Shown here piece after piece: positions 10,988-45,978 of a stretch of 64,000 bases of DNA. A program made the position numbers and the translations under genes. The notes beneath the pieces are model-generated. The model saw only the letters and a list, made by a program, of their open reading frames with translations, was not told the DNA's origin and ran no database searches. How positions within the stretch are numbered: the first letter of the stretch is position 1; every line of letters starts with the position of its first letter. Source of the DNA: a virus; IMG/VR virus record IMGVR_UViG_3300042305_000730, positions 1 to 64,000 of that record; one strand, given 5' to 3'.

Positions 10988-10989
10988 GT

Positions 10990-13003: not shown

Positions 13004-13008
13004 ACGTA

Positions 13009-25178: not shown

Positions 25179-25357
25179 TATGCGCTCCCACCATCATCTA
25201 CAAAGTAATCATTAAGTGGGGTGTCAGAGAAGCCGCTATCAGAGATAGTTTGTGGGAAGCGCTTCCAAACACCGTCAAGATAGCGCCAAACCATACCTCC
25301 AGCGATATACTCATCTCCAGAAGATGGAGAGTTGGGGAAATCAATTGGTGCGGGCAT
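25178..25357 (-). CDS. Small protein made only of the fibre N-terminal IDFPNSP module (59 aa)
   Basis: Manual translation MPAPIDFPNSPSSGDEYIAGGMVWRYLDGVWKR... TAATG-coupled on both sides. Confidence 0.7.
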   Translation of the reverse strand: MPAPIDFPNSPSSGDEYIAGGMVWRYLDGVWKRFPQTISDSGFSDTPLNDYFVDDGGSA

Positions 25358-26829
25358 TATGCAACCACCAAACTTCCTGAAGCCGTAAATGTTCTAACGG
25401 TGTACGAACCAGAAGTTGTTTCAGTTCCGCCTGTAATAGTGGAACCTGAAACGTCTGCTGTCAGATAACGAACTATAACTACACCTGAACCACCAGCGGC
25501 ACCATTGCTGTAACTGCCGAACAAATCTCCGCCACCGCCACCACCGCCAGTGTTTGCCGTGCCAGCGACCGAAACAGTTGTTTGTCGTTTTGCACCGTTG
25601 CCGCCTCCGCCAGAACCACCAGCGCCAACAGAAACACTGTTGCCGCAAGCACCACCACCACCGCCCGCACGAGTAACGGCTGTGCCTGTTATAGATGAAC
25701 TGACTCCGTTCCCACCAGAGGTTGTTCCAACAGCACCAGCACCGCCACCACCTCCACCTCTATATCCCTCATTGGTGGGTGTGTTGTTTCCTGCACCTCC
25801 TGAGTAACCTTGGCTTGTCGTACCAGCACCACCAGCACCAACGTTGTATGAGCCACCACCACCCGAACCGCCAGAAGAACCATTAGAACTAAGTCCGCCA
25901 CCGCCACCACCGCCTGTTGAAGTGATAGTTGAAAAGACAGATGAAACGCCGTTGGTACCATTTACAAATTGAGAAGTGGACCCAGCACCACCAGCACCAA
26001 CTGTGACTGTATAAGTCCCAGGAGTGATAGCAAAAGACGCTTCGGCAGAGGCACCACCACCCGATGTAGCCCCACTTACATTTGTCCTATAACCACCAGC
26101 ACCACCACCGCCTGAAGCCTCCCCACCACCGCCAGCACCACCAGCAATGACGAGGTATTCAACAGAAAGGTTTGCTGTAGTAAATGAAACGGCAGAGGAT
26201 TCTGATGAGCCAGCACCCAAAGCGTTTACCGCTTTAAGTTTTACGTAGTAAGTAGTACCAACAGCAAGACCAGTAATGGTGATTGGGCTTGTGCCATCCG
26301 CTGGTGAAAGTGCTGTGTAAGAACCGTATGTTGTACCACCGTTAGTGGATAGCGCATATTGGTAGTTTGTAATTGTTGAACCACCATCAGCACCTGCTGT
26401 GAATGTGAGAGTGACAGACGATGCACCAGCAGACCCTGATACCGCTACAGATGTCGGTGCTGCAGTAGGTACTGTCGTAATGGCAGAAACCCAAGCGCTC
26501 CCATCCCACCGCTGTAAAGCAGATGTATCAGTAAGAAAAATGAATTGACCAGTAAAAGGTGACGGAATTACAGAAGAGCGGTTTTCAGTAGTAGTTACTG
26601 TAATGCCTGATAGTCCAGAAGCAAGTTTGGCTTGAGTTACTGCCCCAGAATTAATCTTGGCTTCAGTGATAGCGTTAGAAGCAATCTTTGCCGCTGTTAC
26701 TTCGCCTGTAGAAATAGTATAAGAGTTAGCAGTAATTAGGCCCCAAGTGGTGCCGTCAAATATCCACTTCTTTCCACCTGACGTGAAAGAATCATTTGTG
26801 GCTGGAGAGTCAGGAAAGTTAATAGCCAT
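25357..26829 (-). CDS. Fibre/adhesin: IDFP module, A-V-T-x-A-K-I repeats, FN3 and glycine-rich domain
   Basis: 490 aa, domain motifs read from the translation. Confidence 0.75.
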   Translation of the reverse strand: MAINFPDSPATNDSFTSGGKKWIFDGTTWGLITANSYTISTGEVTAAKIASNAITEAKINSGAVTQAKLASGLSGITVTTTENRSSVIPSPFTGQFIFLTDTSALQRWDGSAWVSAITTVPTAAPTSVAVSGSAGASSVTLTFTAGADGGSTITNYQYALSTNGGTTYGSYTALSPADGTSPITITGLAVGTTYYVKLKAVNALGAGSSESSAVSFTTANLSVEYLVIAGGAGGGGEASGGGGAGGYRTNVSGATSGGGASAEASFAITPGTYTVTVGAGGAGSTSQFVNGTNGVSSVFSTITSTGGGGGGGLSSNGSSGGSGGGGSYNVGAGGAGTTSQGYSGGAGNNTPTNEGYRGGGGGGAGAVGTTSGGNGVSSSITGTAVTRAGGGGGACGNSVSVGAGGSGGGGNGAKRQTTVSVAGTANTGGGGGGGDLFGSYSNGAAGGSGVVIVRYLTADVSGSTITGGTETTSGSYTVRTFTASGSLVVA

Positions 26830-26830
26830 A

Positions 26831-28420
26831 CTAAGATATTACTAGGCTTCCTGATGCAGTAAATGTACGAACAGTGTAAGACCCTGAAGTTGTTGCAGTA
26901 CCACCAGTAACTGTCCTATCAGAAAAACTTGCTGTTAAATAACGAACAATTACTACTCCTGAACCGCCGTTACCACCAGAAGCAGGGCCTACGTGAGCGC
27001 CACCACCGCCACCACCGCCAGTATTTGCTGTTCCAGCACCGCCTTCTGCTGGTGAGTTAAAACCGCCTTGCCCACCACCGCCAGCACCACCAGAACCTGG
27101 GGTTCTTGCTCCCGTATTGTTGTTCTGTGAGCCACCACCTCCACCGCCTCTTGTCACTGCCGTACCCGTTATGGACGAAGACACTCCTGCACCGCCATTG
27201 CCACCATTGGATGTAGACCAGTCCAACCCAACTGCTCCTGCGCCACCTCCACCACCTCCGCCAAGTGCCACGCCACCAGTGTGTCCACCACGACCACCCG
27301 CATATCCTTGGTTCGCTGTTCCTGCACCAGCGGTGTTTGGTTCAACACCTCCGCCACCACCTCCACCGCCACCACCGCCAGAGCCACCAGTTGAACCTGC
27401 GAATGATGCTTGTGTCCCTGCTTTGCCGCCACCAATAGATGTCACGGTTGCAAATACTGAATCTGCGCCATTTGTGTATGCCGAAGAACCTACACGTCCA
27501 ATTCCTCCAGCACCAACAGTCACCGTGTAAGTACCCAAAGCAAGAGTCATTGCTGCTTCAGCAGAAGCACCACCACCACTTGTAGCACCTGTTACGTTTG
27601 TTCGGTAGCCTCCTGCACCTCCGCCACCACCGCCAGCACTGTCAGCGCCACCACCTCCGCCACCGCCGCCAGCAATTACAAGGTATTCAACAGAAAGGCT
27701 TGCTGTAGTAAACGAAACAGCAGAAGACTCCGACGACCCAGCACCCAAAGCATTCACTGCTTTAAGTTTTACATTGTAAGCAGTACCAACAGCAAGTCCA
27801 GTAATGGTGATTGGGCTTGAAGCATCGGCGGGAGAAAGTGCCGTGTACTCACCGTATGTTGTACCACCGTTAGTGGATAGCGCATATTGGTAGTTTGTAA
27901 TTGCTGAACCACCATCAGCGCCAGCGGAGAACGTAAGTGTGACTGAACTAGAGGTAGGGGAGCCTGACACCGCTACAGAAGCAGGCGCACCTGTCGGCAC
28001 CGTGGTAATTGCAACAACCCAAGTACTACCGTCCCAACGCTGTAATTGACTTGTATCAGTTAGAAAAATGAATTGACCATTGAAAGGGGACGGGATAACA
28101 GCAGAGCGGTTAGCCGTAGTAGTTACTGTAATGCCCGATAAACCTGAAGCAAGTTTGTCTTGAGTAACGGCACCAGAATTAATCTTGGCAGTTGTTACAG
28201 CATCAGACGCAATTTTTGCTGCCGTGATATTGGCATCCAAAATCTTTGCTGTAGTTACAGCACTAGCGGCTATTTTGTCGGTAGTTACAGCGCCCGTTTC
28301 AATGGATGCCTCGGCTTGAGAAATAACCACAACCCATGCTGTGCCATTGTATTTCCACGTAGTAGTACCTACGGTGAATTCATCGTTAAGGGATGGAGAG
28401 TTAGGGAAATCTATAGCCAT
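26831..28420 (-). CDS. Fibre/adhesin paralogue: IDFP module, repeats, FN3 and glycine-rich domain
   Basis: 529 aa. FN3 segment near-identical to 25357..26829. Confidence 0.75.
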   Translation of the reverse strand: MAIDFPNSPSLNDEFTVGTTTWKYNGTAWVVVISQAEASIETGAVTTDKIAASAVTTAKILDANITAAKIASDAVTTAKINSGAVTQDKLASGLSGITVTTTANRSAVIPSPFNGQFIFLTDTSQLQRWDGSTWVVAITTVPTGAPASVAVSGSPTSSSVTLTFSAGADGGSAITNYQYALSTNGGTTYGEYTALSPADASSPITITGLAVGTAYNVKLKAVNALGAGSSESSAVSFTTASLSVEYLVIAGGGGGGGGADSAGGGGGGAGGYRTNVTGATSGGGASAEAAMTLALGTYTVTVGAGGIGRVGSSAYTNGADSVFATVTSIGGGKAGTQASFAGSTGGSGGGGGGGGGGGVEPNTAGAGTANQGYAGGRGGHTGGVALGGGGGGGAGAVGLDWSTSNGGNGGAGVSSSITGTAVTRGGGGGGSQNNNTGARTPGSGGAGGGGQGGFNSPAEGGAGTANTGGGGGGGAHVGPASGGNGGSGVVIVRYLTASFSDRTVTGGTATTSGSYTVRTFTASGSLVIS

Positions 28421-29616
28421 TATGCAATCACCAAACTTCCCGATGCTGTGAATGTTCTAACGGTGTATAAACCTGAAGTTGTGGCAGTACCACCAGTGAT
28501 GGTTTTGCCTGAGGCACTTGCCGTGAGGTAGCGAACAATGACAACACCAGAACCACCAGCGCCGCCAATTCCAGTATCAAAATTGTAGGCTCCACCACCG
28601 CCACCTCCAGTATTTGCTGTACCAGAAGTTCCATTACCTGCCGCACCACCAGCGTTAGTGCCACCAGCACCACCGCCACCGTTACCTCCTGCACCCGCTA
28701 GAGAGTTGCCTGCGGTATCTCTGCTATCTGCACCGCCTCCACCACCTGCATAGAAGGTTGCCGTTCCAGTGATAGACGAAGAAACACCTGCACCACCGTT
28801 AACTGGTACTGCACTTGAAGTGCCATTTGTTCCAACGGCTCCCGCACCACCACCACCACCATTGCTTCGTGGACTGACTTGTCCGCTTCCTCCACGAAAT
28901 CCCTGTCCAGTTGTTCCAGCACCAAAACTAGTTGAAGGGTAGGACGAGCCTCCTCCAGAACCGCCTGCCTGACCCGCTCCTCCTGATGTTTCGCTACCAC
29001 CACCACCACCACCTGTAGAAGTAATAGCATTGAAGGAGGAAGCAACCCCATTAGAGCCTGGCGAAGTATCAACAGTTGCTCCTGCGCCACCAGCACCAAC
29101 TGTTACCGTGTATGTTCCTGCAACCAAAACCATTGATGCTTCTGCACTCGCCCCTCCACCAGATGTTGCACCAGAAACGTTTGTTCTAAAGCCTCCAGCG
29201 CCACCTCCACCAGCACGGTCAGAACCCCCTCCTCCGCCGCCTGCAACAACCAGGTATTCAGCATAAAATGTTTTCGTATGCTGTGTACCGTCAGACCAAC
29301 CATCTGACAAATACACCTTCATCAAATTCGTATCTGTTTCAAAAACTGTTTGCCCAACAAAAGGAGAACCTGGTCTCGTACTGGAAGTACACACTGTTAC
29401 CACTGGAACTGTAGAAGCAAGTTTGGCTGAAGTTATTGTACTGTCAGCAATTTTGGCTGCCGTAACAGCACTAGACGCTAATTCGGTTGTACCAATAGAA
29501 CCAGCCGCAGCAACTGTTCCAGTAATTTCCCAAATCGTTCCTGACCATGTCCAAGTACGTGCACCTACCGTGTAGGTATCACCAACGCTTGGAGAGGCGG
29601 GAAAAGTAAGGGACAT
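28420..29616 (-). CDS. Fibre/adhesin paralogue with glycine-rich domain
   Basis: 398 aa. LTFPASP N-terminus, shared C-terminus GGSGVVIVRYLTA...TVRTFTASGSLVIA. Confidence 0.75.
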   Translation of the reverse strand: MSLTFPASPSVGDTYTVGARTWTWSGTIWEITGTVAAAGSIGTTELASSAVTAAKIADSTITSAKLASTVPVVTVCTSSTRPGSPFVGQTVFETDTNLMKVYLSDGWSDGTQHTKTFYAEYLVVAGGGGGGSDRAGGGGAGGFRTNVSGATSGGGASAEASMVLVAGTYTVTVGAGGAGATVDTSPGSNGVASSFNAITSTGGGGGGSETSGGAGQAGGSGGGSSYPSTSFGAGTTGQGFRGGSGQVSPRSNGGGGGAGAVGTNGTSSAVPVNGGAGVSSSITGTATFYAGGGGGADSRDTAGNSLAGAGGNGGGGAGGTNAGGAAGNGTSGTANTGGGGGGAYNFDTGIGGAGGSGVVIVRYLTASASGKTITGGTATTSGLYTVRTFTASGSLVIA

Positions 29617-35014: not shown

Positions 35015-35314
35015 CTACTGACCTTTTTTCTTCCTTGGAAAGTCATGCCCGACCTCTAGCATCTTCTTGCGAACAAAACTTTCCATGTTTTTAACGGCAC
35101 GGTGGTCTGAAGGGGTGCTTGCCATGTGCACAATTCCATCATCCTTGATACGCAGTTGAATGTGCCCGCTGTGTGTTTTATGGCCCATCACTGGAGTGCT
35201 TGCTTGGCTTATACGGGAAAGCACCTCACGAAAAGGCTTATGGGTAGTTAGGGAGCGAATACGATCTTCACTGAGTGCATGTTGCTCCCAATTAAGGTTA
35301 TTCTCACCAGCCAT
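35015..35314 (-). CDS. HicA-like mRNase with N-terminal tag extension
   Basis: SGHIQLR..DG.V.MASTPSDHRAVKN is the actinophage HicA-like pattern. N-terminus MAGENNLNWEQH. Confidence 0.65.
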   Translation of the reverse strand: MAGENNLNWEQHALSEDRIRSLTTHKPFREVLSRISQASTPVMGHKTHSGHIQLRIKDDGIVHMASTPSDHRAVKNMESFVRKKMLEVGHDFPRKKKGQ

Positions 35315-35326
35315 CCTTAAAGATTA

Positions 35327-35566
35327 CTACATGCGGTGTAACAGGGTACGTTTCATCCGTGCATAGGCTTGCTCATACTCTTCTGTCTGCTCATCGGTGA
35401 ATACACGAACTGCGTAGATACATGGGTCTCCACCCTGATCTAACTCCTCTTCTTCCTTATCGGAAGTGGGCAACCCATCGTGGATGTAGCAGGTTGGGTA
35501 AAGGCACCATTTATGATCAATCCCAATTGCTAACCATTCATCAAAACCCATAAGTTGTTCTGACAC
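35327..35566 (-). CDS. Hypothetical protein
   Basis: FDEWL..G....WC....C..HDG.P....E......DPC...VR. AGGGAG RBS. Confidence 0.6.
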   Translation of the reverse strand: MSEQLMGFDEWLAIGIDHKWCLYPTCYIHDGLPTSDKEEEELDQGGDPCIYAVRVFTDEQTEEYEQAYARMKRTLLHRM

Positions 35567-35575
35567 ATTTTCTCC

Positions 35576-35734
35576 CTATTTTGAAACCGCTAATGTTACT
35601 TGATACTCCCCATATTCAGGTTGGTCAATAGCAGTTACCATCGCAGTCTTGAACCCTTGGGTGTGGGCTAGTGTAACAGCCTGTTCCTTTGCGTCAAGCA
35701 TCTGGGGCGTAAAAATATGATAAGTGATTATCAT
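35576..35734 (-). CDS. Small hypothetical protein (52 aa)
   Basis: Manual translation MIITYHIFTPQMLDAKEQAVTLAHTQGF...VTLAVSK. Confidence 0.5.
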   Translation of the reverse strand: MIITYHIFTPQMLDAKEQAVTLAHTQGFKTAMVTAIDQPEYGEYQVTLAVSK

Positions 35735-35749
35735 GCCATTGTCCTATCA

Positions 35750-35908
35750 TTAATAATCATATTTTGAAAACTTCTTTATTTTCTTCTTTTCTTTGCGATC
35801 ATTAGAGGATTTACGGTTTTCTTTATGAATGTGCAAATCTTTGTAATGTCCTTCTAAGTCATCTTCCTCTTGAAGAAACTGCTTACTTAAGTTATTATTT
35901 TGATTCAT
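35750..35908 (-). CDS. Small tagged protein, acidic then basic (52 aa)
   Basis: Manual translation MNQNNNLSKQFLQEEDDLEGHYKDLHIHKENRKSSNDRKEKKKIKKFSKYDY. Confidence 0.55.
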   Translation of the reverse strand: MNQNNNLSKQFLQEEDDLEGHYKDLHIHKENRKSSNDRKEKKKIKKFSKYDY

Positions 35909-36040
35909 ATTTATTAAGAAGCAAGACTGACAACCTTTGTTCTAGTCTTTTGTTTTCTTGTACAAGGATTTGCCTAAAGCGATCCTTACCGTACTGGCCT
36001 AATCCATGTTGTTTTTTCATAACTTTAAGCATAGTATAAG

Positions 36041-37330
36041 TTAGAACAACCTGATAGACAGGCTGCCATCCTTTCCTCTTATGACACCTGGTCTACTGTT
36101 CTTATTTTCTTCTTTTATTTCTCTTTGCCTTACTGCAACATGATCCATGCGTTTTACGTTTACGCTCTTAGGTAATGGTGGTGCAGTTGGGGCAAGTTTT
36201 TCATAACCAGGAAGGGTGCTTTGCGTCTTTGGTGGCAGTGGTGCAGTGTAATGGGCGTGTACAGCCTGAGAATACTCTCCAACATCACCAAGACCTAATT
36301 GTTTTAAACCTTCACGGACATGGGGATGGTTCTCCACCATTTGACCTAAATACAGATGTCGGGCAGTAGTTGCGTACTTTGAGTTTTTTGCTGCTAACTT
36401 GCCAGTCTTTTCTTCTATATTTTGCCTTAAAGGCGCTAAGTGCTTGTCGGCAAGGGCATCCATATCTGGCAAAGACTCAATACCAGCCTTTCCATGCATA
36501 GCAACATGCAACCTAGTTGCTGCGTACAATGCTTGTTCGTGCCGATCTCTCCACCCTTTAAAGTTTACGCCGTAACCACCACCAGTTTTCTTAAGATCTA
36601 AAACCCGTTCATCATTTTCAATAGGGTTTAGGTAGCGCTCGTTTACCTCGTCACCACTCTCAAAATCCGTTGTTGTTCCAAACCTATCCTTATACCCATC
36701 TGCAACACCCTCAAACACAGGAGAGGTTACTACCTTACCTTTAGTAGTTGATTTGGCAGTTTCTATTTCTCGGTACCCAAGCCTTTTACCATTATATTGT
36801 GTTGTTCTAGCGCCTTGAGCACTTAGGTGATCTTGGTCTTCTTTATGACCCCATTCGTGGGTAAATGTGTTTCCTAGGTCGTGATGTGATGCAGGGTCAC
36901 CATGTACGTTATATGCGTTCATTACTATTTTGTTATCCCCAGCACTGTACTGTCCAGCCCGTTTAGTGGATCGCAGTCCTTCAACTCTAATTGGGTTTTT
37001 TTCCAACATAGTTTTTGAAATGTTAGTGGATGCTATTGCTTGAGGTATATCCTTCTTTACAACCCCATATACAGAATATCTATGTAAGTTACCTATATCT
37101 GATGAGCCAATACTTGTTGCTTGTCTAATATCTTGTTCTCGTTGCTTAGATCCATACAGTGGATCATTACGAGACTGTGTTGCGGTATCTGGGTGGAAAA
37201 GTAAACCTTGTGGGTTTTTGGAGCGTGGCGTTCCACCAGACCCTCCATAAGAGTGCGTATCTTCGTAAGGGGTTGTTTTGTCATCACCTTCAAAGTAAGT
37301 ATTATTAAACTGTTCTCCAAGGTTAGGCAT
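36041..37330 (-). CDS. Zn metallopeptidase-like protein (HExxH)
   Basis: AGQY, FTHEWGH, downstream FEGVAD. N-terminus MPNLGEQF. TATAAT a few nt before the ATG. Confidence 0.65.
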   Translation of the reverse strand: MPNLGEQFNNTYFEGDDKTTPYEDTHSYGGSGGTPRSKNPQGLLFHPDTATQSRNDPLYGSKQREQDIRQATSIGSSDIGNLHRYSVYGVVKKDIPQAIASTNISKTMLEKNPIRVEGLRSTKRAGQYSAGDNKIVMNAYNVHGDPASHHDLGNTFTHEWGHKEDQDHLSAQGARTTQYNGKRLGYREIETAKSTTKGKVVTSPVFEGVADGYKDRFGTTTDFESGDEVNERYLNPIENDERVLDLKKTGGGYGVNFKGWRDRHEQALYAATRLHVAMHGKAGIESLPDMDALADKHLAPLRQNIEEKTGKLAAKNSKYATTARHLYLGQMVENHPHVREGLKQLGLGDVGEYSQAVHAHYTAPLPPKTQSTLPGYEKLAPTAPPLPKSVNVKRMDHVAVRQREIKEENKNSRPGVIRGKDGSLSIRLF

Positions 37331-37347
37331 AGGTTAATTATAAACCA

Positions 37348-37521
37348 TTATCCACCGTTAGAGTAAAAACCCCTACCTACAAGGTTTACTGCTGGAGAAA
37401 AGTAAACAGGGCGCAATCTTTCATTACAGTCAGGACACAAGATTGTTCTTTGCTCATCGTAGATACTACGGGTTTCTTCGTGCCGATGGTCGTTTGAACA
37501 CTTGTAGGCGTATGTGGGCAT
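37348..37521 (-). CDS. FmdB-family zinc-ribbon protein (57 aa)
   Basis: Manual translation MPTYAYKCSNDHRHEETRSIYDEQRTILCPDCNERLRPVYFSPAVNLVGRGFYSNGG. Confidence 0.8.
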   Translation of the reverse strand: MPTYAYKCSNDHRHEETRSIYDEQRTILCPDCNERLRPVYFSPAVNLVGRGFYSNGG

Positions 37522-37523
37522 AG

Positions 37524-38099
37524 TTATAAGCCTAACTCTTCTTTTGCCTCAGCGTGATACCCGCCCCCATCTCGTTCTTCTGCCCCAGGGTCAGTATTGA
37601 ACTGTTGAGTACTTATATACTGAACATGCCCTGATGTTACTAACTGGTGTGGAATTACATAAGAAGTAGAGCCTGGGTCTTCCCAACGATTTCTATACTT
37701 GTTAATACTGGTTTTGCTATTTTCCTTTACCCGCATGTTTTCTTGATAATCCTTGGGCGGTTTAGGTGCGTTGTCGCTGTATCCCTCTTCGTGTGGGTCT
37801 TCAAAAGTCATCATTGACGGGCGTTTATTAATTTGGTAAGTGTGCATATATGTTGTGAAATCAGGACCGTTATTATCTTCTTGTATTCCCTCTTCAGTCA
37901 TTTGACTGTAATACTGTTTTTCATGGGCATGCTGCATCATTAATGATCGGTCTAAAGCGGCATTTATTGTCCCAGCGTGAAACCCACTCTTTTTATAACC
38001 TTTTCTGAAAGGCTCAGCATGACTGGCAAGCACATGTGGGGGTGTTGGGTTATTACTAGCGTGATACACCGTAATGTTAGTTGGATCTTTCCTAGACAT
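37524..38099 (-). CDS. ADP-ribosyltransferase-like protein
   Basis: ITVYHAS, GFHAGT..AA.DR, Y.N..ED.GS.SYVI. Confidence 0.45.
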   Translation of the reverse strand: MSRKDPTNITVYHASNNPTPPHVLASHAEPFRKGYKKSGFHAGTINAALDRSLMMQHAHEKQYYSQMTEEGIQEDNNGPDFTTYMHTYQINKRPSMMTFEDPHEEGYSDNAPKPPKDYQENMRVKENSKTSINKYRNRWEDPGSTSYVIPHQLVTSGHVQYISTQQFNTDPGAEERDGGGYHAEAKEELGL

Positions 38100-38620
38100 T
38101 ATTTAAACCCCTTTAAGTTCTTTCTTGCTCTGTGTTTTCCTTTGCTACCAAGTCCAGGTGCAGGTGCGGCAACCTTTCTGCTCCCTTGATCAAAAAATAC
38201 TTCACCCTCACCCTCATGACCTATTCCGATGATGTGTTCCCGAGGAACTAGGTAGATGTGGAGTTTGTTGTCTTGACCGTAGTGGTGGATGCCAAACTCT
38301 TCTTTATTTGGATTATTGCCCGTCCACTCAGGATATATAGAACCACTTCGTATTTTGGCACTTTTAGGAACACCACCTCTGTGGGTTACTTGAACCTGAT
38401 CAGGAAGGTTAACTTCATTCTTTAGATGCTGTTGCAGGTTTTGGTAGGGTTCACCACTCCTGTCTTTTGCTTCGTGTAAGTACTCTTTAGGCCACTTAGT
38501 AGTGCCATGTGACCATTGCTCTATATCACTCTCATAATCAGTACCTTCAAAGTATGGGGCATGTCCCTTTTCCCAACTTTCAGAAAACTGATCCCAATTA
38601 ATACCTTCGTGTGCAGCCAT
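38099..38620 (-). CDS. ADP-ribosyltransferase-like protein (R-S-ExE type)
   Basis: VTHRGG, RSGS, HIYLVPREHI...EGEGEVF. N-terminus MAAHEGINWDQF, K/R-rich tail. Confidence 0.55.
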   Translation of the reverse strand: MAAHEGINWDQFSESWEKGHAPYFEGTDYESDIEQWSHGTTKWPKEYLHEAKDRSGEPYQNLQQHLKNEVNLPDQVQVTHRGGVPKSAKIRSGSIYPEWTGNNPNKEEFGIHHYGQDNKLHIYLVPREHIIGIGHEGEGEVFFDQGSRKVAAPAPGLGSKGKHRARKNLKGFK

Positions 38621-39282
38621 TACATGCCTGGGAGTCGTGGTTGATCGTAATATTCTTTAGGTGCTGGCTGCTTTGCAGGGCGGAGCATCTGTTTAAGGAA
38701 CTGCTTGCCTGCCATAACTTCTTTTTGAGGAATATAACCTTCATAAGCACCAGCCATGTCCAATATTTGTTTTGGATTACGCATAATCACGGGTGCTATA
38801 TCTTCTGGTTCAGGTTCTTCAGTCCGTTCAGCATCTGTCAACATGTCAGGGTTAGACCCGTGTGGGACTGCTATACCTTTATTGACAGCAGTTTTAGACA
38901 GTGCGCTGCTAAATTTAGTTAAAGACGAGCCTGTTACCATCTGTGCATGTGGGTGGTCTTGTTGGGCTAGTGCCATGACCGTCATCATGTGGGGGCGAAC
39001 ACGCTTGTCTGCTCGCATACTGTCAACCGTAAGGGTTTCAGGAGTTCCGTAAAACAACTCGGTTGGGTACTTATGTGATTCAGATAGTCGGGTTGGGTAA
39101 CCATCTTCACCAAAATTAGGGTATTCCTGTGCTTTTTGATAAGTAAACTTTGCTTCACCTACTGGATGTATAGGCTTTTCATTGTCAAGGCTTGAATAAC
39201 TTCCTTCAGTACCAACAACACCATATATCCTGCGGCGCTTTGCATAACTGTCGTCAGGTACGTTTTTATAGTACTGAGCCAT
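38620..39282 (-). CDS. Hypothetical protein (possibly degenerate GNAT-like)
   Basis: 220 aa, TAATG-coupled. C-terminal DQPRLPGM. Confidence 0.45.
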   Translation of the reverse strand: MAQYYKNVPDDSYAKRRRIYGVVGTEGSYSSLDNEKPIHPVGEAKFTYQKAQEYPNFGEDGYPTRLSESHKYPTELFYGTPETLTVDSMRADKRVRPHMMTVMALAQQDHPHAQMVTGSSLTKFSSALSKTAVNKGIAVPHGSNPDMLTDAERTEEPEPEDIAPVIMRNPKQILDMAGAYEGYIPQKEVMAGKQFLKQMLRPAKQPAPKEYYDQPRLPGM

Positions 39283-39461
39283 TACTTATCCTTCTTCTTT
39301 GCTTTACGCTTCTCTAGAAGGTATTGTGGGTCACGCTTGGTAAACCCTGCGCTTTGATGGAGTTCGTCAATAGTAATAGGCTCACCGTCTATCCAGGTAT
39401 GCCCTTTAGGGTTGGTGTTAGATTTCCAACGGAATTGGGGGCTTTCGTGCCTAGGGTCCAT
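39282..39461 (-). CDS. Small tagged basic protein (59 aa)
   Basis: Start re-assigned to MDPRHESPQF because of the TAATG overlap with the upstream stop. Confidence 0.55.
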   Translation of the reverse strand: MDPRHESPQFRWKSNTNPKGHTWIDGEPITIDELHQSAGFTKRDPQYLLEKRKAKKKDK

Positions 39462-39829
39462 TAATCTATTTTCCTTTCTGGGTGCTTCATTCCAGGTTTC
39501 CAACCCATACCCTCGGCATACCCAATTACTTTAAAGCCCTTTTTGCTGTCAAAACTTTGCATAACGTTACCATCAGGCTTAATAAGGTCGGGGAATGCAT
39601 CGGCATCATCATGTTCCCAAGGTTCAATTTCTGACCAATCATGGGGAACGACCTTATGTAGATGCTCACCAAACTCACTGGCATAAGTAATGTCTTCTGT
39701 AGCGTGTACATCGTCATCCCCGTCTGCTTGGGGTACTACAGACCCACCTACAGGTATCTTATTTGGTGAACCGTGATACAAGTAAGGGCCAAATAGTTCT
39801 TCGTTGATGTGTGTATGCTTACGAGTCAT
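39461..39829 (-). CDS. Arr-like ADP-ribosyltransferase
   Basis: LYHGS....VG..V.P, VHATEDITYA..FG.H.H.V.P. N-terminus MTRKHTHINEELF. Confidence 0.55.
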   Translation of the reverse strand: MTRKHTHINEELFGPYLYHGSPNKIPVGGSVVPQADGDDDVHATEDITYASEFGEHLHKVVPHDWSEIEPWEHDDADAFPDLIKPDGNVMQSFDSKKGFKVIGYAEGMGWKPGMKHPERKID

Positions 39830-39832
39830 TAG

Positions 39833-40243
39833 TTAATCCTCATACTTAATAGCATGTCCTTGGTTTTTGTGAAAACTTTCCCAACGAGACACTGTATCTT
39901 CAGGCATTACCCCACCATCTGCATTAGATAGATTAGGAATACTTCCCGCCTTATCTAACATAAAGTCCATAGCAGCACCATGTGCTTCCCTTCGTGAACC
40001 AAAGTCTCGTGTTTGTGTACCACGCCCTACTAAACTAATTTCTTTTCTAGCAGGATTGTGCCACTCCCAACCATACTTACCAGTTTTTACTTGGGTTAAA
40101 GAATCTTGCACACGCTTGCCTTCTCCACGTTTATACATTTCTGTCATTGTGCTTTCAGACATGCCAGGAGCGCCATACGTAGCAACCTGCTCGTAGATAT
40201 GTGGTCGCCATTCATTAAATTGATACTCATTAAGTGGTTTCAT
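39833..40243 (-). CDS. Hypothetical tagged protein
   Basis: N-terminus MKPLNEYQF. CCATCTATACTTGAT immediately upstream. Confidence 0.6.
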   Translation of the reverse strand: MKPLNEYQFNEWRPHIYEQVATYGAPGMSESTMTEMYKRGEGKRVQDSLTQVKTGKYGWEWHNPARKEISLVGRGTQTRDFGSRREAHGAAMDFMLDKAGSIPNLSNADGGVMPEDTVSRWESFHKNQGHAIKYED

Positions 40244-40260
40244 GAATCAAGTATAGATGG

Positions 40261-40872
40261 TTATAAAGAAGTGTCTGGAGAAATAACTGTGTCAAATGGG
40301 TCAGACACATCTAACCCCTCTGGATACCAGATTTTAGTGTTTGTAATGTATTTAGGGCGTTCGTCTGTCAATTTAACAAAAGACTCGTCAAACACCAGCA
40401 TACGGTTACCAGGCCAAGCGCCCACACGACCACAGTCTAAACGCACAAAGTTAAAGTGTTTATGCTGATCAGGGGTTGAGGAATACATATCGTCATAGGG
40501 CGCAGCAGTAAACATATACCTACCTGTTTCCCAGACCCCTTCTTTCATATACACCTTCACGGCTAGTTCAGACAATGCACTGTATTCATGGGTAGTGAAA
40601 TCTTGCCCGTAACAACTCCATACCTGTAGGTGGTCTAAAGGGTGGTGGTGTTTAGCAGGCGTATAGAAAGTTAAAGCGTGAAGGGGGACATGTTGGACTA
40701 AAGCGCCGTTTTCTAGGAGTAGGGATACTCCCCATGCCCTATTAGGGATTGCAGACAGCCCATAGACTAAGCAGGCTGTATATTCCCCAAACCCTTTTTC
40801 AAAGTTATACAGAAACTCATTCTGCACATAACAGTAAAATGGTTTAGGAATGTCTGTAATGTGCTTTGCCAT
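40261..40872 (-). CDS. Conserved phage hypothetical protein
   Basis: CYV..EFLYN...G.GE...V.GL.AIP.RA...LENGA....PLHAL...LQ.W.C...HK......LD.G....P.NR. TATACT upstream. Confidence 0.6.
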   Translation of the reverse strand: MAKHITDIPKPFYCYVQNEFLYNFEKGFGEYTACLVYGLSAIPNRAWGVSLLLENGALVQHVPLHALTFYTPAKHHHPLDHLQVWSCYGQDFTTHEYSALSELAVKVYMKEGVWETGRYMFTAAPYDDMYSSTPDQHKHFNFVRLDCGRVGAWPGNRMLVFDESFVKLTDERPKYITNTKIWYPEGLDVSDPFDTVISPDTSL

Positions 40873-40879
40873 TTACATA

Positions 40880-40922
40880 AGTATATACGGACACATCAAC
40901 GGCGAACTTTTTCGTTTATACT
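40880..40922. promoter_or_regulatory. Divergent leaderless-type promoters
   Basis: TATACT 7 nt before the ATG of 40872 (minus) and TATACT 6 nt before the GTG of 40929 (plus). Confidence 0.55.
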
Positions 40923-40928
40923 AGACAA

Positions 40929-41438
40929 GTGCCAGCACGAGAGTACGTCAACAAGGGACAGTTCCCAGAGTCTAAATATCGTAATAAACTACTGTATCGT
41001 GCTGTTACCTTGCATGACCCTGAAATTACTGAGAGATTACACGCAGGAACTATTTCCGCCCCAGAAGTACTCAAACATCTAGGTTCCTCTACAGGAGTAG
41101 GAATGCATTGGGCTGGGGGCGGTCCAGACATGCTATACAGTAGTCGTATGCATGGTGCGGTAAACGACACCCCTGCCACTGTAGTTATGACTATTCACCA
41201 TAACGACCAAATGACCGACAACACTTGGCATGGTGAATTTAAAGGTCAAGGAGCCACCCTTGGTGAATACCATCCAACAGTACCAACACAGGCGATAATG
41301 CACAGCATGGCGGTAGACACTGGTGACCCTACCAAACCAATGCAGTGGGATAGTGACCCCCATTGGAGACCTCTTCCTGGCTCTGCTGGTCTAAAAATTG
41401 AAACATTTTACGATAGAAAACTAGATCGTAATGGGTAA
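40929..41438 (+). CDS. ADP-ribosyltransferase-like protein
   Basis: LLYRAV, GVGMHWA. N-terminus MPAREYVNKGQF. No clear ExE. Confidence 0.4.
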   Translation: MPAREYVNKGQFPESKYRNKLLYRAVTLHDPEITERLHAGTISAPEVLKHLGSSTGVGMHWAGGGPDMLYSSRMHGAVNDTPATVVMTIHHNDQMTDNTWHGEFKGQGATLGEYHPTVPTQAIMHSMAVDTGDPTKPMQWDSDPHWRPLPGSAGLKIETFYDRKLDRNG

Positions 41439-41727
41439 GCGACTCACTGCACAGCAGATCATGGATAACTACCAACCTGGGGATATTCTTAGGCATCAAG
41501 AACCTGAAGAGTTCTGGGGATACAAATTAGAAGAGGCCAAAACTAACAAAATATCTAAAGATAAGACTTTGTATCAAGATATTGAAGAACGTGGGCAGCA
41601 AAAACCAATCACCCTTGGCTATAAAGGGCTTGGTGCTCCTTCTATCTTGGATGGTCACCACCGTTTAGCAGCATTACACCACATGAACCCTAACCAGTTT
41701 GTTAAGTACCGAAGGGTAACCCCGTAA
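41431..41727 (+). CDS. ParB/Sulfiredoxin-like domain protein
   Basis: I...GQQKPI.L.......ILDGHHRLAA. C-terminal HHMNPNQF. Confidence 0.75.
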   Translation: MGKRLTAQQIMDNYQPGDILRHQEPEEFWGYKLEEAKTNKISKDKTLYQDIEERGQQKPITLGYKGLGAPSILDGHHRLAALHHMNPNQFVKYRRVTP

Positions 41728-42074
41728 TGCCAGCACATGAAAGCCTGAGTAACTACCAATTTCGCTACCGCCCTGCCAAAATGAAGGCATTCCAGCATGA
41801 AGTCGCTGCTGTGGATAAAAAAACAGGTAAAAACGTAGGTTACCTACTCTGGAGGAACAGTGGCTCAGTAGATGAAGTGTATGTAAGTGAGCCAAAGCGT
41901 CGTATGGGCATGGCTACCGAAATGTGGAATCATGCAAATCGGGTGGCAGATGCTGCAAAAGGCAATGTTCCGCACCCAGAACACTCTTCATCCCGTACCG
42001 ACGCAGGCGATGCTTGGGCGAAATCTGTAGGTGGATACATTCCACCGAACACCATGGACAAGGAAAAACGATAA
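41727..42074 (+). CDS. GNAT acetyltransferase
   Basis: VG.L.W, VYV....RRMGMAT.M, HS..RTDAGDAWA. N-terminus MPAHESLSNYQF. Confidence 0.8.
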   Translation: MPAHESLSNYQFRYRPAKMKAFQHEVAAVDKKTGKNVGYLLWRNSGSVDEVYVSEPKRRMGMATEMWNHANRVADAAKGNVPHPEHSSSRTDAGDAWAKSVGGYIPPNTMDKEKR

Positions 42075-42520
42075 TGGCTGCACACGAACACTTAAACCCT
42101 GAGCAAGTTAGGGCTATAGCAGAAGCACATGGTGATAAGTATTTTGCCAACTACAAAGACCCAGTAAAACGTGATCGTGGTTGTTGCTATGACTATTCTG
42201 AGCATTTCGGTGAGTTTGGTAATGTAAAAGGAACAAAGATTAAACCATATGAAACTGAGCAAGATGGCGAAGCACATGCAATTAACGTTGTCCCAACCAG
42301 TCAAGGCCCTCACGCAGTAGATTTTACATACCTACAATTTGATAAAACAGCAAAAATGCCACATTTTGAACCATTACATGAATATACTGCACGTTTTAAG
42401 AACAGATTCCCAAAAATGATTGAGTATCCACTACAAACTCCTTCAGGATCTGTAGAACACTTCTACCCAGACATGAATTGGGAATATAAAGGCCCAACTA
42501 ACGAGCACGGCAATTGGTAA
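42074..42520 (+). CDS. Papain/transglutaminase-fold Cys enzyme (C-H-D)
   Basis: Start re-assigned to MAAHEHLNPEQV (TAATG). RGCCYDYS, AHAINV, AVDFTYLQF. Confidence 0.55.
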   Translation: MAAHEHLNPEQVRAIAEAHGDKYFANYKDPVKRDRGCCYDYSEHFGEFGNVKGTKIKPYETEQDGEAHAINVVPTSQGPHAVDFTYLQFDKTAKMPHFEPLHEYTARFKNRFPKMIEYPLQTPSGSVEHFYPDMNWEYKGPTNEHGNW

Positions 42521-42573
42521 TTGCCCTTTAGACGGCAAATTTTTCACCACCCAAATAGCCCTATACTTGATAA

Positions 42574-42879
42574 ATGCCTGAGTACACCTTTCAGTACGGC
42601 CCGTCTGACGAAGATGTGCCACATGAAGTCATTGCGAAAGAGGATAACAAAGTTGTAGGTCGTTTATCGTGGCACCCACAGATTGAAAATGTCTTTGTTG
42701 AAGAAAACCACCGTAGGAAAGGTATCGCTACAGGAATGTACCGTCATGCCCAGCACATTTCTACCCAATTTGACGATGTAGCACCGCCCCAACATAATCC
42801 AATTCGCACTGTAGAAGGCGACGCTTGGGCTAAATCTACGGGTGACACACTTCCTCCACGTATTACCCCACGTAAGTAA
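42574..42879 (+). CDS. GNAT acetyltransferase
   Basis: VGRLSW, VFV...HRRKGIATGM, RTVEGDAWA. CTATACTTGATAA upstream. Confidence 0.8.
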   Translation: MPEYTFQYGPSDEDVPHEVIAKEDNKVVGRLSWHPQIENVFVEENHRRKGIATGMYRHAQHISTQFDDVAPPQHNPIRTVEGDAWAKSTGDTLPPRITPRK

Positions 42880-42896
42880 CCATCTATACTTGATAA

Positions 42897-43202
42897 ATGG
42901 CAGCCTCAGACCATCTTCACCCTACGTTATTCCATGGGTCTAGACAACAATTTAAGCCAGGGGACACTATCCAGCCCGTTACTGAGGCAACCTACAAAGA
43001 ACGAGGCTATTCCACCCCAATGCCTGCCTTTGCCACTGAGAATCTGAATCGGGCGAGGGCCTTTGGGCATGTCTATGAGGTAGAGCCTCATGACTGGAGA
43101 GATGTAGAATGGGAAGAAGACGAGGGCGAGGGCGCTGAAGAAGGCGACTACGCAGCACTAAGTCATACCAAAGGCTACAAAGTCATACGTAAGGTGAAAT
43201 AA
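42897..43202 (+). CDS. Arr-like ADP-ribosyltransferase
   Basis: LFHGS...FKPGD.I.P, AFAT.....A..FG.VYEVEP. N-terminus MAASDHLHPTLF. Confidence 0.65.
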   Translation: MAASDHLHPTLFHGSRQQFKPGDTIQPVTEATYKERGYSTPMPAFATENLNRARAFGHVYEVEPHDWRDVEWEEDEGEGAEEGDYAALSHTKGYKVIRKVK

Positions 43203-43546
43203 TGCCTAAACCAATCAAATATCAGTACGATGAGGGTGGACCTGATGTTGATCACCGTATTAATGCAAGGCAAGGACACTCTACCGTAGGGTTTTTGGCG
43301 TGGCAGGGTAATACTACAGATAAATACAACCATGTTCACGCCGTATATGTGCGACCAGATATGCAGCGAAAGGGTATTGCAACCAAGATGTGGAAGCATG
43401 CTCATTACATTTCTGAACAATTTGAGTCAGTAGCACCACCAAGACACTCTCCAACCCGTACTAATGATGGTGACGCTTGGGCGAGGGCCGTTGGGGGAGA
43501 CATACCACCAAAAAAAGGAACACTGCCCATGACTTGGGAGTTGTAG
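43202..43546 (+). CDS. GNAT acetyltransferase
   Basis: VGFLAW, VYVRPDMQRKGIATKM, HSPTRTNDGDAWA. Confidence 0.8.
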   Translation: MPKPIKYQYDEGGPDVDHRINARQGHSTVGFLAWQGNTTDKYNHVHAVYVRPDMQRKGIATKMWKHAHYISEQFESVAPPRHSPTRTNDGDAWARAVGGDIPPKKGTLPMTWEL

Positions 43547-43649
43547 AGCCAAATTTAGGTCTACGTTAGGGCAAAATGGTGTGTGTGCAATTTTTTGGGA
43601 TGGGTCTATCTGGTGGGTTGATGCTTAGTGGGGGGTGGGCCCTCCTCCC

Positions 43650-43810
43650 CACGCAACCCTCAACCTCTACTTAAGGGTGGGGGGTCTACCCTCAACCCTC
43701 AACCCTCACTAGAGAGTTCACCCATCAACCCTCTACCTATACTGTAGGGTTAGTGGATGGTTGAGACTTTGGGCGAATCCCTTGTGTCATATGGGCACAA
43801 CCCTCAATGG
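43650..43810. repeat. Cluster of short (C)AACCCTC direct repeats and imperfect palindromes
   Basis: caaccctcaacctctacttaagggt, accctcaaccctcaaccctcactagagagtt, caaccctctacctatactgtagggtt, caaccctcaa in a non-coding convergent junction. Confidence 0.65.
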
Positions 43811-44300
43811 CTCAATAGGAGCCTCTAGGAGCGTCTGATAGGCGGATACGCCTACTCATAGGGAATCGTCCTTTGCTCCTCTCCTATGGCATCCTGACGC
43901 TTCTCAGAGGGATCTAGGGATGAAGGGCGATAAGCATCACTCCACGTGGCATTGGCGGGCTAGACGTGGGTCTATGCCGGGGGGTCAGCACGACATTGGG
44001 ATGCTAGGGGAGCATTTGCACTGGTTCCGGCACTCCAGTGATTGATATCTCACTGCATATGCATGCACTCACCAATGACCGATTCATTCATGCATTCCTT
44101 CCCTTCATCCCTCCTCCTGATAGATGAATTGAGTGGTGATGTGCTGGGCGAAATACTCCACGTGGCACTCCACAATGGAATGGTTCATATCGAGATATGC
44201 CATCGTTCGGATGGAGGCTCTCCTCATCCATGTGCTGCTCTTCTGTCCCCTCTCCGATGATCCTGTGACGTGCTTTTCAGTGATGTAGGTGAACTTGGGC

Positions 44301-44343
44301 AAAAAAAAGATCCCCATGACAACTTGTGCCATGGGGATCTTTT
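44301..44343 (-). terminator. Intrinsic terminator (probably bidirectional)
   Basis: AAAAAAAAGATCCCCATG...CATGGGGATCTTTT directly after the helicase stop. Confidence 0.85.
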
Positions 44344-44354
44344 CGGAACGTTGG

Positions 44355-45836
44355 TTACGAGTAAGACCGAAGAATTGCCATCGCCATTGACTCATTGTCC
44401 TCAGAGATCAGATCGTTGCTCGTGCCCTCCAGCACGCCGATCATGACCTTATTCTTCGCCTCAATGAGCATGAGCATCTTCTCGTCCATCGTTGTCATGC
44501 CCTCAATGCCAGCAACCATGATGTGCGAAACAGTCTCACGGGTCTGCCCGAAACGATTGATGCGATCCTCCACTTGAAGCAGATCAGCCGATGTCCACGA
44601 CAGTGAGCAGGACACATGGTGACGTGCGGAGTGGAGCGTGATGCCCGTACCGGCACTCTGCACGTTGCCAATCAGGACACGTGCATGCCCACTCTGGAAT
44701 GCATCCACTGCTTCCATCTTTGCCTTGTCATTCATTCCACCTACGATGCGAACAGCGTTGTGGGATTCAGCGAAGTGGGCGAAATATGCATCGGCTTCAT
44801 CCTTGAAGTTGGTGCTCATGAACACTTGCTCACCATCGTCCAGCAGATTCTCCACGTACTTGATCACAGGCTTCACTGAGCCCATCGCACAGATGTGGCG
44901 GAGTTCATTAATGCGAACTAATGCCTCAGCGAGCATCGCCTTCTGAGCACGTACTTCGCCTTTGGTATTGCGAATCCATTCAATGAGATTCTCTTCGCAT
45001 GCGATGTAGTTCGCAACACGCTTCTCATCCATCTCAATCGTGACTTGTGTACGCCCCTTATTCGGGAGTGTGAGCACTTCACTTCGCACACGGCGGATCA
45101 TGAATGAGCCCGTGAGCAGATCATGCAGTTCTTTGACGTGAGCCGCACCACGACTTCCGAATGCATCAATCTTCGGTGCATAGCGGTTGATGAAACCATT
45201 GATGCCACCCTTGAAGGTTGCTCCACGATCCAGCATCTCTACGACTGGGAGTAATTCCATCGGATGAGCCACGAGCGGTGTTCCACTCATGGCAACACGG
45301 ATTCCGGAGGTTGAGACTGTCTTGGCAATTTCAACGCACGCTTGACTACGTTTCGCACGCTTGCCACCCTTGATGCGCTGACACTCGTCCACGATGATTC
45401 CAGCAACGTTGTGCTTCAGTAAGTTCTTCCATCCAGCCAGTGATGCATCACCAATCAGCAACACATCTGCTTTGGGCAATTCAGTGATTTTGTGCTTGAC
45501 AGGATTTGTTCCAGTGATCGTATGGACACTCACTGTTGGTGAGAACTTTGCGAACTCACGAGCCCACTGCAAACGCATGGACGGTGGTACGACAATCAAC
45601 ACTGGAGTCATGCCTGCGTTTACAGATGCTGTTGCGATGGCAATCGCAGTTGCTGTCTTACCAACGCCCTGCTCATCAGCGATCAACACGGTGCGATTGT
45701 CTAATGCAAATTGACAACCAGTCACTTGGTGATCTAACAGTGGTTGCGCGAGTGATGGCATTGACAATTTGGTTTTAGTGATTGGTGCATTCTTCATGAA
45801 TTGCTGAAGATCTTGAAGTGCTTTTAACTGTGACAT
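44355..45836 (-). CDS. SNF2/HARP-like SF2 helicase (annealing helicase-like)
   Basis: IADEQGVGKT, IVDECQ, MSGTP, GTGITL, QVEDRINRFGQ. Start re-assigned to MSQLKAL (GAAAGG RBS). Confidence 0.88.
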   Translation of the reverse strand: MSQLKALQDLQQFMKNAPITKTKLSMPSLAQPLLDHQVTGCQFALDNRTVLIADEQGVGKTATAIAIATASVNAGMTPVLIVVPPSMRLQWAREFAKFSPTVSVHTITGTNPVKHKITELPKADVLLIGDASLAGWKNLLKHNVAGIIVDECQRIKGGKRAKRSQACVEIAKTVSTSGIRVAMSGTPLVAHPMELLPVVEMLDRGATFKGGINGFINRYAPKIDAFGSRGAAHVKELHDLLTGSFMIRRVRSEVLTLPNKGRTQVTIEMDEKRVANYIACEENLIEWIRNTKGEVRAQKAMLAEALVRINELRHICAMGSVKPVIKYVENLLDDGEQVFMSTNFKDEADAYFAHFAESHNAVRIVGGMNDKAKMEAVDAFQSGHARVLIGNVQSAGTGITLHSARHHVSCSLSWTSADLLQVEDRINRFGQTRETVSHIMVAGIEGMTTMDEKMLMLIEAKNKVMIGVLEGTSNDLISEDNESMAMAILRSYS

Positions 45837-45924: not shown

Positions 45925-45965
45925 AAAAAAGCCCCAGCACATCAGGGATTGATGCACTGGGGCTT
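45925..45965 (-). terminator. Intrinsic terminator, GCCCCAG-stem family
   Basis: GCCCCAG...CTGGGGC followed by TTTTTT on the minus strand. Confidence 0.8.
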
Positions 45966-45978
45966 CGCATGGCCCGAT

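Follow-up and report, generated by a model that had tools for sequence, protein, structure and literature searches.

The 64,000-nucleotide stretch of DNA analysed here (the window; IMG/VR record IMGVR_UViG_3300042305_000730) is the first 64 kb of one 96,978-bp viral genome, rated 99% complete. Positions 35,015 to 43,546 hold an island of small single-domain genes (52-429 amino acids, aa) on both strands, about half of which open with variants of one short peptide (the tag) that typically ends in Q-F. An earlier reading made from the letters of the window (the sequence-only reading) had listed eleven such N-termini, all of which were located where it had placed them. The observation of a shared N-terminal peptide is solid, and it is broader than that reader could see.

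The minus-strand half of the island, in order of coordinates, begins with an open reading frame (ORF) for a tagged 99-aa protein (35015..35314) that bears the variant MAGENNLNWEQH, ending in Q-H, and has an 80% orthologue in the related genome G003; no Pfam match was found for it, and its proposed HicA-like identity was not confirmed. Next are a tagged 52-aa protein (35750..35908) with the short-form tag MNQNNNLSKQF, the orthologues of which begin MEDKKSLSSQF (L005) and MNKNKLSNQF (L004), and a tagged HExxH metallopeptidase-like protein of 429 aa (36041..37330, MPNLGEQF), which has TATAAT-N6-ATG directly upstream and relatives that begin MALGPQF, MTLGSQF and MPLGPQF. An untagged Zn-ribbon protein (37348-37521, minus strand) and an untagged 191-aa ORF with VYHAS...FHAGT motifs and no significant family match (37524-38099, minus strand) separate the peptidase from a tagged ADP-ribosyltransferase (ART)-like protein of 173 aa (38099..38620, MAAHEGINWDQF), in which R81, S92-G-S94 and E138-G-E140 are conserved. 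The untagged 220-aa ORF that follows (38620..39282, MAQYYK...) has a homologue in L024, a relative of high guanine-plus-cytosine (GC) content, that is flanked by the terminase gene and a tagged GNAT gene. A tagged 59-aa protein (39282..39461, MDPRHESPQF) belongs to a family of 54-58 aa proteins found at five loci; its start at 39461 is an internal ATG of the ORF 39282-39503, and this start is confirmed in relatives. The half is completed by an Arr-like small ADP-ribosyltransferase-like ORF of 122 aa (39461..39829) with the degenerate tag MTRKHTHINEELF followed by LYHGS, a tagged 136-aa protein (39833..40243) with the short form MKPLNEYQF, preceded by TATACT-N6-ATG (box at 40255-40250), and an untagged 203-aa ORF (40261..40872) that heads the minus-strand half, is preceded by TATACT-N7-ATG (box at 40885-40880) and is missing from the tag-bearing genome G003.

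A divergent control region of 56 bp (40873..40928), in which two TATACT -10-like boxes stand back to back, each 6-7 nt ahead of a start codon, leads into the plus-strand half. This encodes a tagged 169-aa protein (40929..41438) that starts with GTG and reads MPAREYVNKGQF (TATACT-N6-GTG, box at 40917-40922; a relative begins MPAHEYVNKGQF), an untagged ParB/Srx-like protein of 98 aa with a DGHHR motif (41431..41727), the family of which is tagged in relatives, a tagged mini-GNAT of 115 aa (41727..42074, MPAHESLSNYQF), and a tagged Cys/His protein of 148 aa (42074..42520, MAAHEHLNPEQV). Beyond these are an untagged GNAT paralogue of 101 aa without tag residues 3-8 (42574..42879; TATACT-N6-ATG, box at 42562-42567), an Arr-like ORF of 101 aa in which MAASDHLHPTLF abuts FHGS (42897..43202; TATACT-N6-ATG, box at 42885-42890) and a second untagged GNAT paralogue of 114 aa (43202..43546). 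The plus-strand half ends at a convergent gap of 558 bp (43547-44104).

Q-F occurs within the first 14 residues of 7 of the 21 island ORFs (35.0-43.5 kb) versus 1 of the 89 other ORFs of the window (Fisher p = 2.6e-5), and that single outsider (44105-44395) is a doubtful ORF. From amino-acid composition the chance per protein is 0.014, which gives a binomial probability of 9e-9 for at least 7 in 21; enrichment over background, on which the sequence-only reading had staked its motif, is borne out. So is its remark that the motif was not seen at N-termini in the fibre module or the early region, since a looser pattern, [LIVM][NSHG]x(1,2)[QL][FVH], matches 10 island ORFs and none in the rest of the window. 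In the lineage background, made up of 1,582 ORFs around the capsid gene in 80 relatives, there are only 5 matches, two of them in homologues of the tagged peptidase. Elsewhere in the genome the motif turns up once more, as MAKLNGQF at genome positions 79805-80311, which was dismissed as chance because it is not conserved in the orthologue.

The shared motif thus stood, but not the formula first written for it, [HN]-[LIVM]-[NS]-x(1,2)-Q-F, which strictly fits about one of the eleven N-termini. The consensus of the long form, from 44 distinct instances, is M-[A26/P15]-A43-H32-E35-x-[L29/I8/V6]-[S22/N16]-x(1-2)-Q-F, and a short form, M-A-L-[N/S]-P-x-Q-F and the like, is also present. MTRKHTHINEELF and MAASDHLHPTLF are degenerate tags with L-F replacing Q-F, and are counted as members because their Arr-like relatives bear the canonical tag. 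Two copies that had been proposed near C-termini, HHMNPNQF and YISTQQF, exist as strings but have no support as tags; the motif is overwhelmingly N-terminal. No description of the tag was found in the papers searched.

Relatives of the island genes were gathered by means of one tagged protein and of a back-translated tag pattern (21 viral contigs). A relaxed form of the motif, sought in the six-frame translation of 1.77 Mb of related phage DNA, gave 44 distinct N-terminal versus 14 internal instances, many of the latter in doubtful frames. When the first 16 residues were cut off, the 102 distinct sequences from the scan fell into 42 BLAST clusters, which represent at least about 25 unrelated cargo families after evident internal-methionine artefacts are set aside, and the claim that the tag is portable on otherwise unrelated proteins thereby holds in relatives as well. 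Among 105 diverse solo GNATs, 82 have Q-F in the first 18 residues (consensus M-[APS]-A-x-[ED]-[NH]-L-[NS]-x-x-Q-F-x-[YF]), and the tag therefore extends far past this phage. The back-translated pattern had six matches in 185,579 prokaryote genomes, approximately the number expected by chance; all six were rejected as tags, being internal to unrelated reading frames that do not look like those of phages, and as an N-terminal element the tag is therefore known from viral contigs only. Families may be both tagged and untagged: of the three GNAT paralogues in the window, the two without the tag align to the third except for exactly residues 3-8 (A-H-E-S-L-S), and ParB-like proteins are tagged in relatives and untagged in the window. 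The tag is therefore a separable property and not part of catalysis.

ART-like orthologues have an overall identity of only 69-77%, but pairwise comparison of their eleven tag codons gave 15 synonymous and 0 non-synonymous differences. GNATs of low-GC and high-GC phages have identical fixed tag residues encoded by differing codons, and the DNA upstream of tagged genes is not conserved between them. Judged by these substitutions, the element is a peptide selected at the amino-acid level and not a DNA element. An explanation at the level of RNA or DNA, by which the first codons would aid leaderless or coupled translation initiation, or would serve as recombination adapters for the shuffling of cassettes, is for the same reasons highly improbable, and most tagged genes are moreover internal to operons. 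It would draw on the start sites of five island genes. Across the genome, TATACT stands six or seven nucleotides ahead of a start codon at five places, each of them the start of an island gene (40929+, 42574+, 42897+, 40872- and 40243-), there is no evident Shine-Dalgarno sequence upstream, and two of the TATACT copies lie inside an exact 18-nt repeat, TAACCATCTATACTTGAT, at 40246-40263 (minus strand) and 42877-42894 (plus strand). The island genes of relatives show the same TATACT-type layout. From its position we infer that TATACT serves the island as a -10 box of its own, for transcripts of the leaderless kind that Actinobacteria commonly produce.

All cargo sequence matches fall below the Pfam cut-offs, those of the untagged GNATs excepted. 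The tagged GNAT (41727-42074) is the best defined: its AlphaFold2 model, built with 105 homologues, has a predicted local distance difference test score (pLDDT) of 92.8, and its top Foldseek matches are all GNATs, including RimI, albeit modest ones (best E = 4.4e-4, template-modelling score approximately 0.56). The acetyl-CoA loop is conserved (R59-x-G61-x-A-T64), and the protein appears from the model to be a shortened form without the usual first two helices, so that the GNAT assignment of the sequence-only reading is confirmed by fold. The Arr-like ORFs and their relatives have the motifs [LF][FY]HG[ST] ... A-T ... V-Y-E-V-E-P in common; 4 of 11 members match the Arr-ms family of Pfam weakly (best E = 9e-4, all under the cut-off; 42897-43202 at E = 0.0089, 16.6 bits against a 25-bit cut-off), and the family profile had no match among PDB sequences. 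ParB-like proteins possess the DGHHR motif, and a tagged relative (L011:2510-2830) matches ParB_N at E = 1e-5. The Arr-like and ParB-like calls are thus backed by repeated Pfam matches, but weak ones. For the ART-like protein (38099-38620), the invariant residues R81, S92-x-S94 and E138-x-E140 reproduce the R...S-x-S...E-x-E pattern on which the call was based, but there is no database match behind it: none in Pfam, none among PDB sequences with the family profile and none in the ESM Atlas, and its AlphaFold2 model is poor (pLDDT 46.9). Similarly, the peptidase (36041-37330) does contain an HExxH motif (H-E-W-G-H), but matches Tox-MPTase2 only weakly (E = 0.03). The Cys/His protein (42074-42520) has a weak ESM Atlas lead to Tox-PLDMTX (0.91), and the papain-like fold proposed for it was not confirmed.

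This repertoire matches that of the phage polyvalent proteins defined by Iyer, Burroughs, Anand, de Souza and Aravind in 2017 (PMC5512222). That work describes solo GNAT and ParB-like genes beside late genes, predicts capsid delivery of polyvalent proteins and of such solo genes, and cites the location of P1 DdrB in the head; a search of it by term found no mention of an N-terminal motif (PMC5512222). Polyvalent proteins such as P1 DdrB and Mycobacterium phage Tonenili gp97 have, like the island, a RimI-like GNAT, a DdrB-like ParB domain, ART or Arr domains or a zincin peptidase, and like the island, which adjoins tail-fibre genes, they are encoded beside late or structural genes. They differ in that two to fifteen domains are joined in one polypeptide, whereas the island has separate single-domain genes, many of them tagged. 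The tagged GNAT matches an internal domain of Tonenili gp97 (751 aa, L027:8512-10767), in which a ParB-like segment is fused with one GNAT, unassigned regions and another GNAT, and the gene of which lies upstream of that for the portal, at a distance of two genes and a tRNA cluster. Longer proteins with the GNAT in fused form were missed by a word-index search and recovered by a full hidden Markov model search: the 1,717 relatives found include many solo proteins (100-140 aa) and many giant ones in which the domain is repeated, up to 12 times in 3,303 aa. Loci related to one of the giant polyvalent proteins, P0154, are found on high-GC contigs, several of about 155 kb; the same search with P0159 found nothing.

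In the giant polyvalent proteins (P0152-P0171) the motif [KRH]-T-A-[AGS] was observed 132 times versus 19 expected, often at the start of a module, and solo genes begin M-A-A at the matching place. The Arr-like start reads K-T-A-A-R-D-L-P-P-L-H-H-G-T in a giant-protein module versus M-A-A-S-D-H-L-H-P-T-L-F-H-G-S in a solo protein, and the ART-like start reads K-T-A-S-D-W-D-Q-F in one giant protein versus M-A-A-H-E-G-I-N-W-D-Q-F in a solo one. Internal GNAT repeats are preceded by segments that resemble the tag (T-A-G-x-N-G-D-L-P-x-G-L-x-F-x-Y and A-P-H-P-x-N-V-E-Y-K-F). Solo genes thus begin at the start points of fused modules, and the tag may have descended from a module-start segment. A 255-aa protein of two relatives (L012:1234-2001 and L022:1048-1815), in which a ParB-like domain is joined to a Cys-rich one, has the short tag MPRPVGPQF at its start and a second element, G-A-P-Q-F, at the domain junction, and looks as if two tagged cassettes had been fused.

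These observations bear on a second explanation, that the tag is an inherited module-start cap (a junction remnant, a processing site, or an element of stability or refolding) without any role as an address. The recurrent junction motif, the tag-like segments before GNAT repeats, the second Q-F of the two-domain protein and the prevalence of Q-F in diverse solo GNATs are all consistent with it, as are a model of the GNAT in which the tag is partly structured with Q-F in the first β-strand, and the Arr-like proteins, in which the tag abuts the FHG[ST] strand. Nevertheless, a tag-like element follows only 10 of the 132 junctions (versus 2.5% at random positions), and the canonical tag therefore belongs to the solo genes and is more than a relic of junctions. 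The untagged GNAT paralogues align over the fold without residues 3-8, so the cap is dispensable for folding, and one cap for the GNAT, ART, ParB and zincin folds would be structurally hard to explain. We consider this explanation unlikely, and it would be compatible with a role as an address in any case.

Junction-like motifs recur in proteins of Tonenili. Three proteins of its head module, gp245, gp240 and gp239 (L028:7899-8276, 10216-11814 and 11807-13108), have the N-terminus R-I-[VT]-T-A-R-E-Q-[FA]-E-M-L-[LQ]-P-W in common. It is similar to H-L-N-H-E-Q-L-R-M-F-V-P-A-K-E, the extended form that the tag takes in tagged ParB-like proteins, and may be the counterpart of the tag in this cultured mycobacteriophage. 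[KRH]-T-A-[AGS] recurs in gp97, and T-A-[GR] in the large head protein gp249 (L028:2348-6058), which looks like a protease-scaffold fusion from its N-terminal sequence, although Pfam did not confirm this. The distribution of the T-A motif suggests that its sites are candidate maturation-cleavage sites of capsid-internal proteins.

High-GC relatives that share the portal (51-55% identity) and the capsid lineage have tagged genes within the head/neck module, where they overlap structural genes and are translationally coupled to portal and neck genes. In L011 the GTG start codon of a tagged ParB-like gene overlaps the portal stop codon (GTGA), and a second tagged ParB-like gene follows the capsid gene; in L021 the portal start codon overlaps the end of a tagged gene (TAATG); one-base overlaps link tagged genes and neck genes into chains in L013 and G001. 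In the window itself, the island's minus-strand half (40872 to 35015) and the tail-fibre genes form one unbroken run: gaps of 60 bp or longer are absent, and so are terminator-like sites on that strand. The overlaps with structural genes and the unbroken run into the fibre genes point to co-expression with virion proteins.

Taken with its strict N-terminal placement, its portability, the split between tagged and untagged members of families, the polyvalent repertoire, the coupling to portal and neck genes and the restriction to phages, this context makes a capsid address the best single explanation of the tag, which would load effectors into the head. Resting as it does on genomic context and cargo repertoire, it is put forward tentatively, its likelihood falling a little short of an even chance. 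The closest precedent is that of the T-even internal (Ip) proteins, which have only an N-terminal leader in common that directs them into the capsid (PMC12373910); ten residues of the leader suffice, and foreign proteins can be carried in by it (PMC9026906). The Ip locus together with Alt, like the island, comprises unrelated small proteins that look non-essential, a leader of approximately 10 residues and a hypervariable locus in a contractile-tailed phage, and the ADP-ribosyltransferase Alt is paralleled in the island by at least one ADP-ribosyltransferase-like type of cargo. However, the tag has no sequence similarity to the capsid-targeting sequence (CTS) of T4, which is MKTYQEFIAE-like, and the island phage has neither a gp21-type protease nor the L/I-x-E cleavage logic, its head being of the N4-gp56 type with a separate scaffold. 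The cargo differs as well, being mostly polyvalent-type enzymes in the island versus small basic inhibitors among the Ip proteins; packaging in the capsid, established for the latter, is proposed for the former. The analogy with T4 internal proteins drawn in the sequence-only reading is thus apt with respect to leader-only sharing, and not with respect to the protease or the leader sequence; of its wider interpretation, the portable, selected, island-confined N-terminal peptide on unrelated cargo stood. Leader cleavage of the T4 type is unlikely.

Several observations weigh against a capsid address. Half of the island genes have no tag, among them ART-like, GNAT and ParB-like genes, and it is missing from cultured phages of Streptomyces that share the portal type (GiJojo). 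Low-GC island genes have -10-like boxes of their own, and their timing may therefore differ from that of structural genes and could be early. No prohead protease of the T4 or HK97 type (PF03420, PF04586) was found in the 99%-complete genome, although PF03420 was also blank in all control genomes, which makes that half of the result weak; a cleavage mechanism of the T4 type therefore cannot apply as such. In the GNAT model, A-H-E-S-L (residues 3-7) forms a short helix (pLDDT approximately 81) ahead of the Q-F strand, and there is therefore no free disordered peptide there. According to this model, and to the position of the tag in Arr-like proteins, the tag is an N-terminal cap joined directly to the first strand of its cargo and not a long flexible leader.

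A third explanation is that the tag is a docking motif that brings enzymes to one host machine (RNA polymerase, the ribosome or a part of the replisome) or to a phage partner, with no packaging involved. This would fit the cargo, which consists mostly of protein- or nucleic-acid-modifying enzymes, and the host-type -10 boxes of individual island genes; conservation of the tag across phages of low-GC freshwater hosts and of high-GC hosts is what a conserved host receptor would predict. One ParB-like subfamily extends the tag to Q-L-x-M-F, resembling the bacterial sliding-clamp motif Q-L-[SD]-L-F, but L-N-x-x-Q-F, the general form of the tag, is not of the β-clamp type, and the clamp idea was rejected for all but that subfamily. 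No actinobacterial hub is known to bind an N-terminal peptide of this kind, docking needs no strict N-terminal placement, and the coupling to portal and neck genes in relatives would be left unexplained. Docking is accordingly rated as improbable.

Under the capsid-address reading, the island would be a disaggregated polyvalent protein, with modules that are fused elsewhere (mini-GNAT, ParB/DdrB-like nuclease, Arr/ART-like ADP-ribosyltransferases and zincin peptidase) encoded here as separate small genes. The N-terminal peptide of 8-12 residues on about half of the genes would bring each module into the assembling head, of the N4-gp56 type without a protease, and the modules would be ejected with the DNA to act on the host as infection starts. 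The leader would probably remain uncleaved, unlike the T-even CTS; in tag-bearing high-GC relatives, too, the head module shows only portal, scaffold and capsid genes. As a dozen cargo types would compete for it, the receptor would be expected among the core components present in many copies, such as the capsid protein or scaffold. By eye, no motif in common with the tag was seen in the capsid, scaffold and portal proteins. A single co-folding run of capsid, scaffold and tagged ART-like protein gave a score of 0.00, which weighs neither way, and a search by gene profile for genes present in G000-G003 and missing from the tag-less GiJojo, a comparison of few genomes, returned only neck, lysin and unknown genes. 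An HslV-like peptidase, the 203-aa ORF and the 220-aa ORF were rejected as partners, each being missing from some tag-bearing genomes.

If the capsid protein were the receptor, the cargo-loading peptides of encapsulins would be an analogue, in that a short terminal peptide takes unrelated enzymes to the inside of an HK97-fold shell, with no proteolysis involved. The peptides of encapsulins differ from the tag in consensus and, as a rule, in lying at the C-terminus. MuF-toxin fusions and the payload packing domains of contractile injection systems also address effectors N-terminally to heads or tail-like particles, but their signals are whole domains or approximately 50 residues, in contrast to the short tag of the island, and no MuF domain was seen by Pfam on tagged proteins.

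If the address reading is true, the tag would be a marker, readable from sequence, of injected effectors in uncultured actinophages, and candidates for anti-defence and host takeover could be listed from metagenomes as they have been for T-even Ip genes. Polyvalent modules would then be deliverable without fusion or proteolysis, and a minimal tag might be used to load foreign proteins into the heads of phages of Actinobacteria. ADP-ribosyltransferases of freshwater actinophages have been read as toxins against eukaryotic grazers (PMC6802176), a reading that a capsid address would challenge. The full proposition, that one of the most abundant freshwater phage lineages loads dozens of enzyme families by a universal uncleaved tag of 8-12 residues into a protease-less N4-type capsid in the manner of encapsulins, that modules fused into giant polyvalent proteins by other actinophages are delivered by it as a mix-and-match set of individually tagged proteins, and that its "Trojan-horse" ADP-ribosyltransferases would be injected effectors of host takeover or anti-defence and not anti-grazer toxins, is possible but rather doubtful. 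Should the role of the tag differ, a 12-residue peptide on at least 25 unrelated families in low-GC and high-GC phages would still mark a common interaction.

Almost all genes of the window are on the minus strand. The window encodes an N4-gp56-family major capsid protein (1613-2698), along with the scaffold (2735-3523), the portal (3582-5273), the large terminase (11438-13003) and, in the head module beside the portal gene, an HslV-family peptidase with an N-terminal Thr (5609-6244, minus strand, MTTIVGV...), the gene of which is found in G000 and G003 and is missing from the tag-bearing high-GC relatives. Past the window, putative sheath, tube, tape measure and baseplate genes were recognized from N-terminal sequence, gene order and homology to annotated tail genes of Streptomyces phage GiJojo, and the phage is therefore a myovirus. 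A WhiB gene is present at 55159-55569 (E = 1e-13); whiB has been published as a marker of actinophages (PMC6802176), which makes a freshwater actinobacterium the probable host, in agreement with the Actinobacteria proposed as host in the sequence-only reading. The GC content is 44.6%. The phage is known from metagenomes only: a search of cultured-phage DNA with the island had no match, nor did a tblastn search with the HExxH peptidase (36041-37330). The island DNA occurs nearly unchanged in at least 20 lake-water metagenome runs, and the phage's capsid lineage is highly abundant, with more than 600 contigs in IMG/VR and more than 4,000 capsid-protein clusters.

A strong terminator-like hairpin of 17 pairs with a T-run (45928-45966, minus strand) lies directly upstream of an SNF2 helicase gene. 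In the region named tail-fibre by its position alone, four successive ORFs (25178-29616, minus strand) open with M-[AS]-[IL]-x-F-P-x-S-P-x-x-x-D-x-[FY]-T-x-G, and look like paralogous N-terminal attachment domains of fibres. A second family of common N-termini is found at 60939-61847 (minus strand), where adjoining small ORFs open with MPKGEDTRHHSNRKV and MSGGKDERHNAKRQV.

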